A stretch of 64,000 nt of DNA. Origin: Eledone cirrhosa (Eukaryota). Below, one piece after another: positions 15,029 to 61,351 of this stretch. Each line of letters opens with the position of its first letter. Positions within the stretch are counted from its first letter, which is position 1. The notes under the pieces are model-generated. The model ran no database searches and had not been told where the DNA came from. It was given only the letters and a program-made list of their open reading frames with translations. The position numbers were made by a program, and so were the translations under genes. The stretch covers positions 265,794,001 to 265,858,000 of the forward strand of contig OZ024740.1 of assembly GCA_964016885.1 (NCBI GenBank), read 5' to 3'.

Positions 15029-15840
15029 AGTATGTATGTATACGTACATACATATATGTATACAGACGTACAGTAGCATGCATATATATATATATATATA
15101 TATATATATATATATATATATATATATATATACATATATATACATACAGGTGCACATATATATATGTACGTATCAGTTTAGCGAACGTTTATTATAACGC
15201 CCGCTTTGTCCGTTTGTAAACACGCGAACAGCCTGATTTATGCCATACGGTGTTAAGGCAACCACGTCACCTTTTTGTTCAACACTGACACAGGAACGAT
15301 GTACTAGTTTCAAGCTTGTTTGCTATCATCAACACCGTATAACCTTCTGCCAGATAGTTGAACGTTCGGAAGTATATACTTTCCTTATGAAAATTAAGGG
15401 CTGAGCAGCCTAATTTGCATATCGAGTGAGTTCAGTCGGCCAGGCGTACCGAAAATGATAAGTTGTAATATAATGAAACGAAATTTCATTTCTCACTCTT
15501 AGTACGGCACTTACTTAAATGTAAGTATGTATGTATACGTACATACATATATGTATACAGACTTACAGTAGCATGCATATATATATATATATACATATAT
15601 ATACATACAGGTACACATATATATATGTACGTATCAGTTTAGCGAACGTTTATTATAACGCCCGCTTTGTCCGTTTGTAAACAAGCGAACAGCCTGATTT
15701 ATGCCATACGGTGTTAAGGCAACCACGTCAGCTTTTTGTTCAACACTGACACAGAAGGGTACGTATACATACATACTTACATTTAAGTAAGTGCTGTACT
15801 AAGAGTGATAAACGAAATTTCGTTTCATTATATTACAACG
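15029..15840 (-). mobile_element. Non-coding HHR repeat (~460-490-bp unit, partial tandem plus inverted tail)
   Basis: 15029-15290 is repeated at 15523-15755; 15760-15840 is the reverse complement of ~15462-15543; contains an HHR. Confidence 0.8.
15296..15338 (-). ncRNA. Minimal type I hammerhead (C3U variant copy)
   Basis: Minus strand: acggtg-TTGATGA-tagc aaacaa gctt-GAAA-ctag-TA-catcgt. Confidence 0.7.
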
Positions 15841-15925
15841 ATATATATATATATATACATATAGATAGATATATATACATATAGATAGATATATATAAAT
15901 ATATATATATATATATATATATATA

Positions 15926-16580
15926 TATGTGTTGGTATTTTAACGATAGTTATAGCTCTGATTTATCTGAATTATTGAGCCCTCTGCCACTCATGTCGAA
16001 TTTTGTTTATCATGAACTCGTGCGCCGATTTTCGATACTCGATTATTCTACTATATTTAGCTCTAGACTTAGCTATTGACCAGTTAATTTTATTGTTCAT
16101 TTTTTGTCGATTCTATTAAATGATGAATAGCTCCTGTTTATTTCAACATGTCTATTGAGCACTCTTATTCGATATGTGATTTTCTACATTCTCGAATATT
16201 TTTTGCGGATATAGATGTTATCTCCCTTGCTGAATTCCATGTGCGTTTTCAGCTGGGGTTGTGCCTTTTTATTCGTTCGGACGAAGCTCGTTGAGAAAGT
16301 ATATCCTGTCCACCGCCCCCTAGAAGTCTTATATATTTTTATGTGAGCTGATAGTGGGCGATTTAAGGATTTACAGAAACCCAAGAAGCTAGATTTACCA
16401 TCTTTCTAGCGGGTCCGGTTAAGCTTTTTACATTCATATGATTTATTGATTTATTAATATTTTATCTGAGTGACCCGAATCTTCCGGATCGTAATTTTTC
16501 GGTCGTATGGTTGATTTTAGAAATGATCTATGTGTGTTGGTATTTTAACGATAGTTATAGCTGTGATTTATCTGAATTAT
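15926..16580. mobile_element. ~605-bp non-coding element with ~50-bp terminal direct repeats, in (TA)n
   Basis: gtgttggtattttaacgatagttatagct(c/g)tgatttatctgaattat at ~15928 and ~16534. Confidence 0.65.
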
Positions 16581-17086
16581 GTATATATATATAAATATAT
16601 ATATATCTATATTATATATATATATATATATATATGTATATATATATATATATATATGTATATATATATATAAATATATATATATCTATATTATATATAT
16701 ATATATATATATGTATATATATATATAAATATATATATATTATATATATATATATATATATATATATATGTATATATATATATATATATATGTATATATA
16801 TATATATATATATATATATATATATATATATATATATGTATATATATATAGATATATATATATATATATATATGTATATATATATAAATATATATATATA
16901 TGTATATATATATATATATATATATATATATATATATATGTATATATATATAGATATATATATATATATATATATGTATATATATATAAATATATATATA
17001 TATATATGTATATATATATATATATATATATATATATATATATATGTATATATATATAGATATATATATATATATATATATATATA

Positions 17087-17715
17087 TAAAAGACGTAAAA
17101 TAAGAAAATATCTTTTAAAAAAATTTTTTTTTTTAATTTTTTACTTAAATACTTAAATTTTCACTCCAACTAATTAGTTTCTGCAATGGGATAAAGACAG
17201 TTACGTAATCCAACTGTCGAGAATTCATTGCGTCATCAGGGAGTCTATTCTCAGTTAAGTCTCCAGGCAATGCGCGGACACTGGCGGCTCATATAAAAAT
17301 AATAATAATTCGGTAGATCGAACAGCTGGCGAGGACTGGATTCTATGTACCGAAATTCTCAATGCTTCAGGTCAAATGGCCGATTCTAAAGAATCAATCA
17401 CGTGACACAGAGGCTAGTTAGAAGGAATGGGATGGTAAGATGACTGACGCCTACTAACACCCCAAAAAATTTTTTTAGAAGTGGTTTTGGCAAGTTTGCT
17501 CGACAAATCAGTTCTCTGGAGATAAATTTAGATAATTTAATATATCAACTAACATAAGCGCACAGATGCACGCCCATGCTAGCAAATACACAGGTTATGT
17601 CATAGTACCTAGGTGGTTCAATGCAGGAGAATGCAGAACAATAATATAAAAGACGTAAAATAAGAAAATATCATTTAAAAAGAAAAAAATTTTTTTTTAA
17701 ATTATCTCAAAATAT
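17087..17715 (-). mobile_element. ~560-bp retrozyme-like element with terminal direct repeat and HHR
   Basis: taaaagacgtaaaataagaaaatatc at 17087 and 17647; homologous to 24373-25018 on the opposite strand. Confidence 0.8.
17163..17244 (-). ncRNA. Type I hammerhead ribozyme
   Basis: Minus strand: actcc-CTGATGA-c-gcaatg...(gacagtt/aactgtc hairpin)...cattgc-a-GAAA-ctaattag-TT-ggagt. Confidence 0.88.
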
Positions 17716-18796
17716 ATATGTATATATATATAAATATATATATATCTATATTATATATATATATATATATATGTATATATATATAGATATATATATATCT
17801 ATATTATATATATATATATATATACATATATATATATATATGTATATATATATAAATATATATATATCTATATTATATATATATATATATATATGTATAT
17901 ATATATATAGATATATATATATCTATATTATATATATATATATATACATATATATATGTATATATATATAGATATAGATATATATCTATATTATATAAAT
18001 ATATATATATATATATATATATATATATATGTATATATATATATATATATATCTATATTATATATATATATATATATATATATGTATATATATATATATA
18101 TATATATTATATATATATATGTATATATATATATATATATATCTATATTATATATATATATATATATATATATATGTATATATATATATATATATTATAT
18201 ATATATTTATATGTATATATATATATATAATATATATATATATATATATATATGTATATATATATTATATATATATATAATATATATATATATATATATA
18301 TATATGTATATATATATTATATATATATATAATATATATATATATATATATATATATATATATGTATATATATATTATATATATATAATATATATATATA
18401 TATATATATATATGTATATATATATTATATGTATATATATATATATGTATATATATATATATTATATATATATATATATATATATATATATATGTATATA
18501 TATATATAGATATATATATAGATATATATATATATCTATATCTATATTATATATATATATATATATATATATAGATATATATATAGATATATATATAGAT
18601 ATATATATAGATATATATATATATATATATATATATATATAGATATATATATAGATATATATATAGATAGATATATATATATAATATAGATATAGATATA
18701 GATATATATCTATATACATATACATATATATATATATATATAATATATCTATATATATATCTATATACATATATATATATATATATATATATACAT

Positions 18797-19252
18797 GTAA
18801 GTATGCATGTATACGTACATACATATATGTATACAGACGTACAGTAGCATGCACATATATATATATATATATATACACATATACATACATATGCATACAG
18901 GTACACATACATATATGCACGTATCAGTTTAGCGGCGCTTATTATAAAGTCGCTTTGTTCGTTTGTAAACAAACTGAACAGCCTGAATTTATGCCATACG
19001 GTGTTAAGGCAACCACGTCACCTTTTTGTTCAACACTGACACAGGAACGATGTACTAGTTTCATTTTGTTTCAATTTATCGTTTTCGGTATGCCTGACCG
19101 ATTTAACTCACTCAATATGCAAATTAGGCTGCTCAGCCGTTAATTTTCATAAGGAAAGTATATACTTTCGAACGTTCAACTATCTGGCAGATGGGTAAAC
19201 GGTGCTGATGATAGCTAACAAGCTTGAAACTAGTACATCGTTCCTGTGTCAG
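18797..19252. mobile_element. Diverged copy of the 15-kb HHR family with an internal inversion
   Basis: 18797-19063 is colinear with 15029-15312; 19064-19252 is inverted; 28-bp inverted repeats at 19036-19063 and 19225-19252. Confidence 0.8.
19198..19242 (+). ncRNA. Canonical minimal type I hammerhead ribozyme
   Basis: aacggtg-CTGATGA-t-agct-aaca-agct-t-GAAA-ctag-TA-catcgtt. Confidence 0.9.
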
Positions 19253-59692: not shown

Positions 59693-59778
59693 ATCCGTAT
59701 GAAGAACTCAATGTAATCCGGATATCATGGAAAGAAGAGATGCAATGAAAAATCACTTTCGGTGAAAGATAAACGGAT
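59693..59778 (+). ncRNA. Hammerhead-like motif with A3 core (copies at 61192-61276 + and ~23496-23581 -)
   Basis: atccgt-ATGAAGA-act...ggt-GAAA-ga-TA-a-acggat. Confidence 0.4.
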
Positions 59779-59800
59779 TACAGAGTCAAGATAAAATATT

Positions 59801-60200
59801 AAAAAAATAATGAATAAAACAATGAAACAGTTCCTTATATTAAACAAAAAAAGTTCATTATTTAACGATCGTTTCTAGGATATATATGTGTTAGAATTGG
59901 CATGCATATTCAACAGATCTATGTACAAAATTATACAAAATTATACAAACTATCAAAATTAAATATACATACCAAACACATATATATGCCGTCTTCAGAA
60001 ATAATGAAGACGGCATATATATGTGTTTGGTATGTATATTTAATTTTGATAGTTTGTATAATTTTGTATAATTTTGTACATAGATCTGTTGAATATGCAT
60101 GCCAATTCTAACACATATATATCCTAGAAACGATCGTTAAATAATGAACTTTTTTTGTTTAATATAAGGAACTGTTTCATTGTTTTATTCATTATTTTTT
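59801..60200. repeat. ~400-bp near-perfect palindrome of the expanded-stem-II HHR pseudo-LTR (copy 2 at ~61299-61700)
   Basis: Arms meet at tcttca-gaaataa-tgaaga (59992-60010); the ORF track shows identical ORFs on both strands. Confidence 0.93.
59854..60008 (-). ncRNA. Type I hammerhead, expanded stem II
   Basis: Reverse complement of the 22879-23033 motif with intact core. Confidence 0.83.
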
Positions 60201-60502
60201 TTATATTTTATATATATATATATATATTTTTATATATATATATATATATATATATATATATATATATATATATATATATATATATATAAACAATTAAGTT
60301 AAAAATGTACATCTACATATGTATACTGAATTACAAACGAAACGAAATTTAATTTCGTTTCGTTATTTGTTTTTATCGTCTCCGTTGAACCGGTACGTAC
60401 TCACACTCTATGCAAATTAGTCTGCCCACTACTAATTTTCATAAAAAAAGCATATAACGATATGTGCTTTTACGATTCTCCAGAAAGGCCGGTAGATAGG
60501 TA

Positions 60503-60547
60503 AATATTGCTGATGAGTTGTAACAACAACGAAACTAGTTCAATGTT
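60503..60547 (+). ncRNA. Canonical minimal type I hammerhead ribozyme (identical to 59028-59072)
   Basis: Same sequence, 1475 bp downstream. Confidence 0.93.
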
Positions 60548-61351
60548 CCTTGTCTGGCTTTCTGGAGAATAGAGGAAAGGTGTTTCCTCAAAAACCAGTA
60601 TGACTCTAAAAACCGGTTTGTCTGTGTGTTTACATACAGAATAGCTGGATACTCACAGTAAAGTAACCAGTGAAAGACTTGGTACATCTACATATGTATA
60701 CGTGTGTGTATTCATATGCATACTAGTATTTCAGTATACATATGTAGATATACATTTTTAACTTAATTGTTTAAGCGTCAGTCATACAAAAGTGAGTTAC
60801 AAACGAAACGAAATTTAATTTCGTTTCGTTATTTGTTTTATATATATATATATATATATATATATAAATATATATATATATATATTTATATATATATATA
60901 TATATATATATATATATATATATATATATATATATATATATATATATATATATATATATATATATATTTATATATATATATATATATATACATATTTATA
61001 TATATATATATTTTTATATATATATATATATATATATATATACATATCTATATATATATATATTTATATACATATATATATTTATATATATATATATATA
61101 TATATATATATATATATATATATATATATATATATATATATATATATATATATATGTAGATAAATCTACCAAGAGTTTACGGTAGTGTCCAATCCGTATG
61201 AAGAACTCAATGTAATCCGGATATCATGGAAAGAAGAGATGCAATGAAAAATCACATTCGGTGAAAGATAAACGGAATACAGAGTCAAGATAAATATTAA
61301 AAAAATAATGAATAAAACAATGAAACAGTTCCTTATATTAAACAAAAAAAG

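Follow-up and report, generated by a model that had tools for sequence, protein, structure and literature searches.

Hammerhead motifs in two diverged repeat families of Eledone cirrhosa, probably non-autonomous retrozymes

What kind of element carries the hammerhead ribozyme (HHR) motifs found in a 64,000-nucleotide stretch of Eledone cirrhosa DNA (contig OZ024740.1, positions 265,794,001 to 265,858,000, forward strand; here called the window), and how was it copied? The motifs belong to two non-coding repeat families, family A, with loci at about 10, 15 and 19 kb, and family B, with loci at about 59 and 60 kb. We consider it very probable that A and B are two diverged members of a single lineage of non-coding, non-autonomous animal retrozymes of the type lacking long terminal repeats (non-LTR), copied by the enzymes of Penelope-like elements (PLEs). 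The motif, its covariation, the unit size, the folding, the insertion anatomy and the fixed ends are all observed. Canonical type I HHRs are common and well described in animal repeats, so the ribozyme alone is not surprising. It is the PLE-type insertion anatomy, unmentioned in the original prediction for this locus, that identifies the elements, and the modest added value of the locus lies there.

The hammerheads and their conservation

The complete copies of the motif and their parts lie at the following positions.

19193-19245 (+): type I HHR of family A, from the descriptor and alignment to the Rfam model HH9
19193-19195, extension GGG; 19196-19198, loop 1 TAA; 19199-19204/19236-19241, helix I; 19205-19211, core
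19212-19215/19222-19225, helix II with U·U at its base and loop 2 TAACAA; 19226-19229, GAAA
CTAG, loop region of helix III; triplet GUA, predicted cut after 19235; U1.7 at 19242
15292-15344 (-): family A HHR with core TTGATGA (C3U), U·U at the base of helix II and loop 2 AAACAA; predicted cut after 15302
59023-59075 (+): type I HHR of family B, from the descriptor; 35 bits with HH9, under the gathering score of 52
59026-59028, loop 1 TAA; 59029-59034/59066-59071, helix I; 59035-59041, core
59042-59045/59052-59055, helix II (G10.1-C11.1) with loop 2 TAACAA; 59056-59059, GAAA
triplet GUU, predicted cut after 59065; U1.7 at 59072
59000-59095 (+): the same HHR with its long outer helix (59000-59017/59079-59095)
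60498-60550 (+): second family B HHR, a duplicate inside a local tandem duplication of about 1.5 kb; predicted cut after 60540

A strict type I descriptor matched the window at exactly three sites, with cores starting at 19205(+), 59035(+) and 60510(+), and at none in each of 40 dinucleotide shuffles; a loose descriptor matched seven sites, against a shuffle mean of 0.15. The consensus core (C3UGANGA/GAAA/UH), three helices and an open helix I are present at these three sites. The fourth copy, with its core starting at 15332(-), departs from the consensus by C3U, and both its loop 1 and its loop 2 also differ from those of the 19-kb copy. The family A strings quoted in the original prediction (all the quoted strings, of both families, occur in the window) are therefore true of the 19-kb copy but not of the 15-kb copy. 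The latter is probably impaired, as judged from its core; the 59- and 60-kb copies, and perhaps the 19-kb copy, remain the best candidates for active ribozymes among those originally proposed.

Aligned to HH9, the three distinct copies score 35, 18.5 and 17.5 bits, all under the gathering score, and the 59-kb copy aligns over the full model. In the fold guided by this model, helix I has 6 bp and is followed by an internal loop, UAA opposite U1.7, and by GG/CC; helix II has 4 bp and is capped by the hexaloop UAACAA; and helix III, with 2 bp, is built around the palindrome CUAG. The bulge and loop features that had been described as a longer stem I, a UA bulge and a tetraloop are present, but they read differently in this fold, and the base of helix II in family A is U10.1·U11.1 rather than G-C. 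The same U·U occurs at the base of helix II in the axolotl HHR_Amex2, of which the monomer cleaved by 22% in one hour (PMC7229834).

U1.7, the 3'-terminal A of loop 2, the UA of loop 1 and the helix sizes of 6 and 4 bp, all features of canonical type I HHRs, can be read in these sequences. A Hoogsteen pair between U1.7 and the final A of loop 2 is reported from the structures of Schistosoma and sTRSV (PMC11875169; PMC6155905). The proposed tertiary contact between bulge and loop is supported by this likeness, but as the contact already known from canonical Schistosoma/HH9-type hammerheads and not as a new one. Families A and B resemble Schistosoma Sm-alpha and Hammerhead_HH9 (RF02275), as described, in the 6-bp helix I, the UA internal loop opposite U1.7, the 4-bp helix II, the hexaloop ending in A and the conserved core. 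They differ in having a helix III of 2 bp with a palindromic CUAG and the triplet GUA (A) or GUU (B) in place of GUC. They are also multi-copy, unlike the conserved, intronic, single-copy HH9.

The cleavage-competent fold lies above the minimum-energy fold by 1.8 kcal/mol in family B and by 2.4 kcal/mol in the 19-kb copy of family A, and helix III is able to pair between two copies. Searched with a covariance model built from the four copies, the window gave no other complete copy, and the sole match beyond the four was the truncated direct part of the 19-kb insertion. A pattern scan for the full motif gave no match in viral contigs and none in metagenomes; three loci matched by a shorter pattern all lack the CUGANGA core and were dismissed as chance.

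The alignment used for covariation has four rows, three of them distinct. Its cells pair in 93.3% of cases, and 5 of 15 pairs are changed on both sides (two in helix I and three in helix II), which was reached by 1 of 500 shuffles; structures slid along the alignment gave 27-50% pairing. The covariation control is lenient, since the structure was read from the same sequences. Between the 19- and 59-kb copies, core and helix III are identical at 16 of 16 positions and loops 1 and 2 at 10 of 10, compared with 12 of 26 for the strands of helices I and II and 208 of 343 (61%) for the aligned units overall. Randomising the substituted bases gave P = 0.0004-0.07, varying with the direction of comparison and the transition bias. 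The 59- and 60-kb copies (2 differences in 550 bases) lie inside one tandem duplication and so count once, leaving only two independent lineages to compare. Within that limit, the double changes and the kept core and loops stand as originally described, and covariation and conservation pattern together support selection on RNA structure in the predicted A and B hammerheads.

The duplication itself (58726-61786, about 1.5 kb, 96.7% including TA tracts) takes in family B, a further hammerhead-type family C and the microsatellites of both; it could be genuine or an artifact of assembly.

Units and insertions

The insertions and a hairpin shared by the two families are the following.

9932-10250 (-): family A copy that lacks one unit but otherwise corresponds to the 15-kb locus (97.8% over 369 nt), without a hammerhead core
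15027-15840 (-): family A insertion, with 1.48 tandem units at 15027-15757 (unit 495), an inverted piece at 15759-15840 and (TA)n on both sides
18790-19253 (no single strand): family A insertion with a 5' inversion, composed of a direct part at 18790-19063 and an inverted part at 19058-19253 that holds the intact HHR
58812-59364 (+): family B insertion, with an inverted piece at 58812-58859 (= 59251-59298), 1.10 units of 466 nt and (TA)n on both sides
60287-60839 (+): duplicate of the family B insertion, with 2 differences in 550 nt
58932-58967 (+): hairpin upstream of the HHR, inside the stretch best conserved between A and B

The window thus holds three family A loci and two family B loci. 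Units are 461-495 nt long in family A (461 without an expanded TA tract) and 466 nt in family B, in agreement with the circle sizes that had been predicted, and the two families are homologous along their length. They are non-coding, the longest ATG-started open reading frame (ORF) having 55 codons, and the GC content of the family B unit is 35%. The family B unit folds with z = -10.6 on the ribozyme strand, against -7.3 for the antisense, and family A with z = -4.45. What is expected of an animal retrozyme unit (non-coding, a few hundred base pairs, GC below 50%, a type I HHR) is found in both.

At the 15-kb locus a 64-nt tail (15777-15840) is carried on the inverted piece, and the upstream partial unit starts 8-9 nt past the predicted cut. 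The 10- and 15-kb loci have in common an inversion junction and the flanking microsatellite pattern. At 19 kb the direct part, which is of minus sense, ends 11 nt upstream of the cut; the two parts are joined by a 6-nt microhomology and overlap by 29 nt across the cut site. The 59-kb insertion has a 47-nt terminal direct repeat (58852-58898 = 59318-59364) and a 66-nt tail (59299-59364), and its one-sided tail stands at the opposite end from that of the 15-kb locus. In both families the long end falls just past the same small hairpin, and the surrounding stretch, 58924-58981, matches 15373-15431 and 19106-19164 with 81% identity over 59 nt. Of the three 5' ends of direct copies, two are no more than 11 nt away from the predicted cut, a suggestive closeness at most (post hoc P about 0.006).

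The 15-kb A locus and the B loci therefore show the partial tandem, the 5' inverted copy and the one-sided tail of a PLE-type insertion. This pattern has been described for PLEs, and a (TA)n target for those of the Hydra, Naiad and Neptune types (PMC8557442). Inverted copy, one-sided tail and (TA)n ends recur in a Hydra-type PLE remnant of the window, at 61.8-63.3 kb. (TA)n tracts flank both ends at 10, 15, 59 and 60 kb and one end at 19 kb; the window is very TA-rich, which weakens (TA)n ends as a sign taken alone. Compared with PLEs, especially the Hydra clade (Craig et al. 2021, PMC8557442) and the HHRs of PLE pseudo-LTRs (Cervera and de la Pena 2014, PMC4209133), A and B share the partial tandem, the 5' inverted copy, the tail, the (TA)n target and a type I HHR with palindromic helix III. 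They differ in having no ORF for reverse transcriptase (RT) and endonuclease, in having canonical loop 1 and loop 2 motifs instead of a minimal HHR, and in tails of 64-66 nt rather than 30-40, and their sequences match none of the window's PLE remnants.

To see other copies of family B, we aligned contigs of 4 of 24 listed sequencing runs, none of which is on record as RNA. In one run (X1), 1227 contigs align to family B with summed depths mostly of 1e5-6e5; X1 may be the source of the window itself, and the depth is not a copy number. Family B appears to be a high-copy repeat. The best-supported loose (TA)n ends among those listed for X1 are at 59298 (5 contigs) and, at the tail end, 58901 (6 contigs); they coincide with the short and the long end of the insertion in the window.

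How the elements may have been copied

The likeness of A and B to animal non-LTR retrozymes, as described by Cervera and de la Pena (2020, PMC7229834) and by Li, Clavereau and Pollet (2026, bioRxiv 10.64898/2026.07.22.740005), includes an AT-rich non-coding unit of a few hundred bases, a canonical type I HHR, a highly self-paired RNA, co-occurrence with PLEs and the U·U of HHR_Amex2. The loci differ from retrozymes in holding 1.1-1.5 units with one ribozyme rather than dimers or arrays. Their inverted piece, one-sided tail and (TA)n ends are not described in the available parts of PMC7229834 and of the 2026 preprint. Animal retrozymes are derived from PLEs in that preprint, by co-occurrence and trees (bioRxiv 10.64898/2026.07.22.740005). 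In the available part of a 2020 review, they are reported to show no motif pointing to a helper element (PMC7761336). Hydra PLEs insert into (TA)n and bear HHRs (PMC8557442); on account of the shared (TA)n ends and the neighboring remnants, the likeliest helper, a weak inference by analogy, would be a PLE of the Hydra clade.

A cycle can be proposed on the retrozyme model (PMC7229834; PMC4209133). Tandem copies would be transcribed by read-through, and the RNA would be cut by the hammerhead after GUA (A) or GUU (B), with the help of the contact between U1.7 and loop 2, either as a monomer or as a dimer formed through the palindromic helix III. A host ligase would circularize the cut RNA. The RT/GIY-YIG protein of a PLE, primed at (TA)n targets, would then reverse-transcribe it and run past the ribozyme site, giving copies of more than one unit. 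Since the copies cross the cut site, the template was either uncut or re-ligated. The A and B loci of the window, with one ribozyme each, are probably products of such a cycle and not its sources.

One alternative is that the units are pseudo-LTRs, formed of the 3' end and the 5' start of an autonomous PLE whose ORF lies outside the window. The loci would then be 5'-truncated insertions with no small-RNA cycle. We think this unlikely, although the anatomy is identical to that of PLE insertions and other hammerhead families in the window stand immediately after ORF remnants of PLEs. A closed non-coding unit without any ORF above 55 codons is run round 1.48 times at the 15-kb locus and 1.10 times in family B. 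An ORF for RT and GIY-YIG, as in an autonomous PLE, is found in neither unit, and the tblastn matches of PLE proteins are at other places in the window. In the available parts of PMC4209133 and PMC7761336, the hammerheads of animal PLEs are described as minimal and lacking loop-loop contacts, whereas A and B keep the canonical loops. The depth along family B in X1 shows no steep fall to the 5' side, though contig depth is a poor measure.

A second alternative is that the repeats now spread as DNA, by fold-back, unequal crossover or microsatellite-driven duplication, and that the hammerhead is a relic of an earlier retroelement phase. The 59/60-kb and 10/15-kb pairs are indeed best explained by duplication or loss of a unit at the DNA level, the 15-kb ribozyme has a changed core, and the RNA stage of A and B is predicted from DNA. 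The variants listed among the family B contigs nonetheless make this quite improbable as the general explanation. None of 28 falls in the 46 nt of 59024-59069 (P about 0.05, post hoc). Positions without a confident pair hold 17 of the 28, against an expected 37% (P = 0.009); of nine transitions at paired sites, eight leave the pair intact (P = 0.03). On the ribozyme strand (span 58856-59321), transitions number 18 A/G and 6 C/T (P = 0.023). The fixed 3' ends, too, recur in other copies.

By inspection, the six variants listed in 59000-59095 keep or add pairing, 4 of the 6 standing at confident pairs; at 59070 nearly all other copies have A, by which a U·G becomes U-A. A double change at 59175/59190, T-A (U-A) in the window and C-G in most other copies, keeps its pair. 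Over the unit, 8 of the 11 variants at confident pairs are compatible with pairing. The A/G excess may fit an RNA-level process, either tolerance of G·U or A-to-I editing; the A/G changes are not polarized, G being the common allele at several sites.

The third alternative, a domesticated host ribozyme of the intronic HH9/RECK type regulating a cellular transcript, takes its appeal from HH9 as the best Rfam match and is very improbable, that match being under the gathering score, the element being multi-copy amid retroelement debris and microsatellites, and all notable Pfam matches (27 ORFs of the window scanned) being retroelement domains.

We therefore return to retrozymes copied by PLE enzymes, a reading against which several points must be set. 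It is drawn from DNA sequence, with cleavage, transcript and circle as its predictions. At least two complete HHRs one unit apart are taken to mark an active retrozyme (bioRxiv 10.64898/2026.07.22.740005), and no A or B locus of the window has two HHRs one unit apart; in the same source, 1 of 9 predicted retrozyme dimers of Xenopus cleaved in vitro. The units exceed the 150-450 bp of PMC7229834, falling within the 51-972 bp of the preprint, and the tails are longer than the 30-40 bp known from PLEs. By blastn, neither A nor B showed similarity to the window's PLE remnants, so that a Hydra-clade helper stays a candidate.

None of the copies is ideal, either. The 15-kb copy has C3U and a changed loop 2, family A has U10.1·U11.1, family B has U17 (with no variant listed at U17 among the family B copies), and U1.7 may be paired with A2.7 at 19 kb and at 59 kb. 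C3U and U17 lower cleavage activity; the literature gave no usable numbers for measured effects of either. Three of the 11 variants at confidently paired positions break their pair. Finally, contigs of runs X4, X7 and X15 have a joint going back 466 nt, and no such joint is listed for X1. We rejected this joint as proof of circles, arrays or multimers: in an assembly graph, the 47-nt terminal repeat can by itself close a loop of this kind.

A stronger statement can be offered only tentatively: that the inversion, one-sided tail, (TA)n and two fixed 3' ends are a PLE-integration footprint which, with reverse transcription through the ribozyme site, would show directly that PLE enzymes, probably of the Hydra clade, mobilize retrozyme RNA circles, which in the literature consulted is a hypothesis or a deduction from phylogeny, and that the A/G excess would record A-to-I editing of the RNA intermediate, later fixed in the genome. 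In a literature search, none of the texts available described retrozymes that have the inversion, the tail and the (TA)n ends, and supplements may hold such a description. The search found no paper joining octopus and hammerhead, and the main text of an Octopus repeat annotation makes no mention of ribozymes. With a high-copy family having PLE-type ends and at least seven other hammerhead repeat groups at hand, the link to PLEs would become testable by genome-wide counting. The same counting would test the rolling-circle model and the role of cleavage in setting the 5' ends.

Words of family B also occur in 20 runs from 16 studies under 17 organism codes; no RNA run is among the holders listed, which speaks neither for nor against expression. 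We do not take this spread for horizontal transfer: the depth in the three aligned runs of other organisms is about 3-25 in most bins (up to 73), against 1e5-6e5 in X1, and most of the common alleles are shared. In X7 and X15, four of the loose ends are at GANTC sites and have the letters of proximity-ligation junctions. The simpler reading is carry-over between DNA libraries, and some of the codes may be related host species that carry copies.

Other hammerhead-type motifs and the surrounding DNA

The window is repeat-rich DNA of animal type with long (TA)n tracts, and its microsatellites look octopus-like. No Rfam family reached its gathering score anywhere in it, and sub-threshold matches to microRNA and snoRNA families were set aside as hairpin or microsatellite noise. 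The Pfam scan found remnants of non-LTR retroelements with RVT_1, zf-RVT and Exo_endo_phos domains. The retroelement pieces are the following.

13.2-14.8, 34.5-37.8, 40.5-43.5 and 53.5-57.7 kb: broken non-LTR retrotransposon copies (RT, zf-RVT and endonuclease domains)
10925-11359 (-): GIY-YIG piece (Pfam, E 0.027, under the curated cut-off)
49613-49963 (-): GIY-YIG piece (Pfam)
61844-63333 (-): Hydra-type PLE remnant, used for comparison, with the ORF piece 62354-63031, a CxCX5 linker and a GIY-YIG region

The ORF piece 62354-63031(-) has 31 relatives of 401-760 amino acids, and tblastn with four of them gave matches at 11.0-11.8, 29.0-30.1, 31.4-32.1 and 62.2-63.0 kb. The printed relatives contain the DKT and CxCX5C motifs, and the pieces in the window have a matching linker; these motifs are defining for Hydra-clade PLEs (PMC8557442). 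The remnant at 61844-63333 has a hammerhead-like motif at 62000, a 356-nt inverted repeat, an extra tail on one end and (TA)n ends. Downstream of PLE-remnant ORFs, hammerhead-type motifs occur at 10618, 62000 and 48587. The motif in the remnants at 61844-63333 and 39930-40150 has the core CAGAAGA (U4A) in three of four copies and TAGAAGA in the fourth, with a non-palindromic helix III of 4 bp; this is perhaps a natural variant of the core, or else a dead motif that was inherited.

At least seven hammerhead-type groups besides A and B were recognized in the window, comprising the following motifs.

1269+, 22889+, 23355-, 59998-, 61496-: family C
17239-, 24891+: family D
27738+: family E
40065-, 40081+, 62000-, 63266+: family F
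10618-; 26304-; 48587-: further hammerhead-type motifs

In most of these groups helix II is long (41-116 nt) and helix III is palindromic (13 of 17 rows, A and B included), and U17 occurs in 6 of 9 groups. By eye, inversion or truncation points of families C, F and D (about 60001, 23365 and 40073, and 24372) fall at the 5' strand of helix I or in the core, as if the RT stalls or folds back just after crossing the ribozyme. The stretch 27352-28489 consists of 2.1 tandem copies of a 487-bp unit with an inverted 128-nt head and (TA)n at its left end, and each unit has a hammerhead-type motif, the second with a helix I mismatch (by eye). No other true tandem pair occurs in the window, and this one, as judged from its sequence, would be the closest fit to a circle-producing retrozyme locus.

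Two further repeats were noticed. An AT-rich family at 7954-9525 has tandem and inverted copies and (TA)n ends, and neither descriptor scan found a hammerhead in it. A dispersed and tandem non-coding repeat of about 620 bp (47974-48381 and 50957-53198), whose copies end in (ACAT)n, adjoins the PLE remnant at 49613-50840(-).

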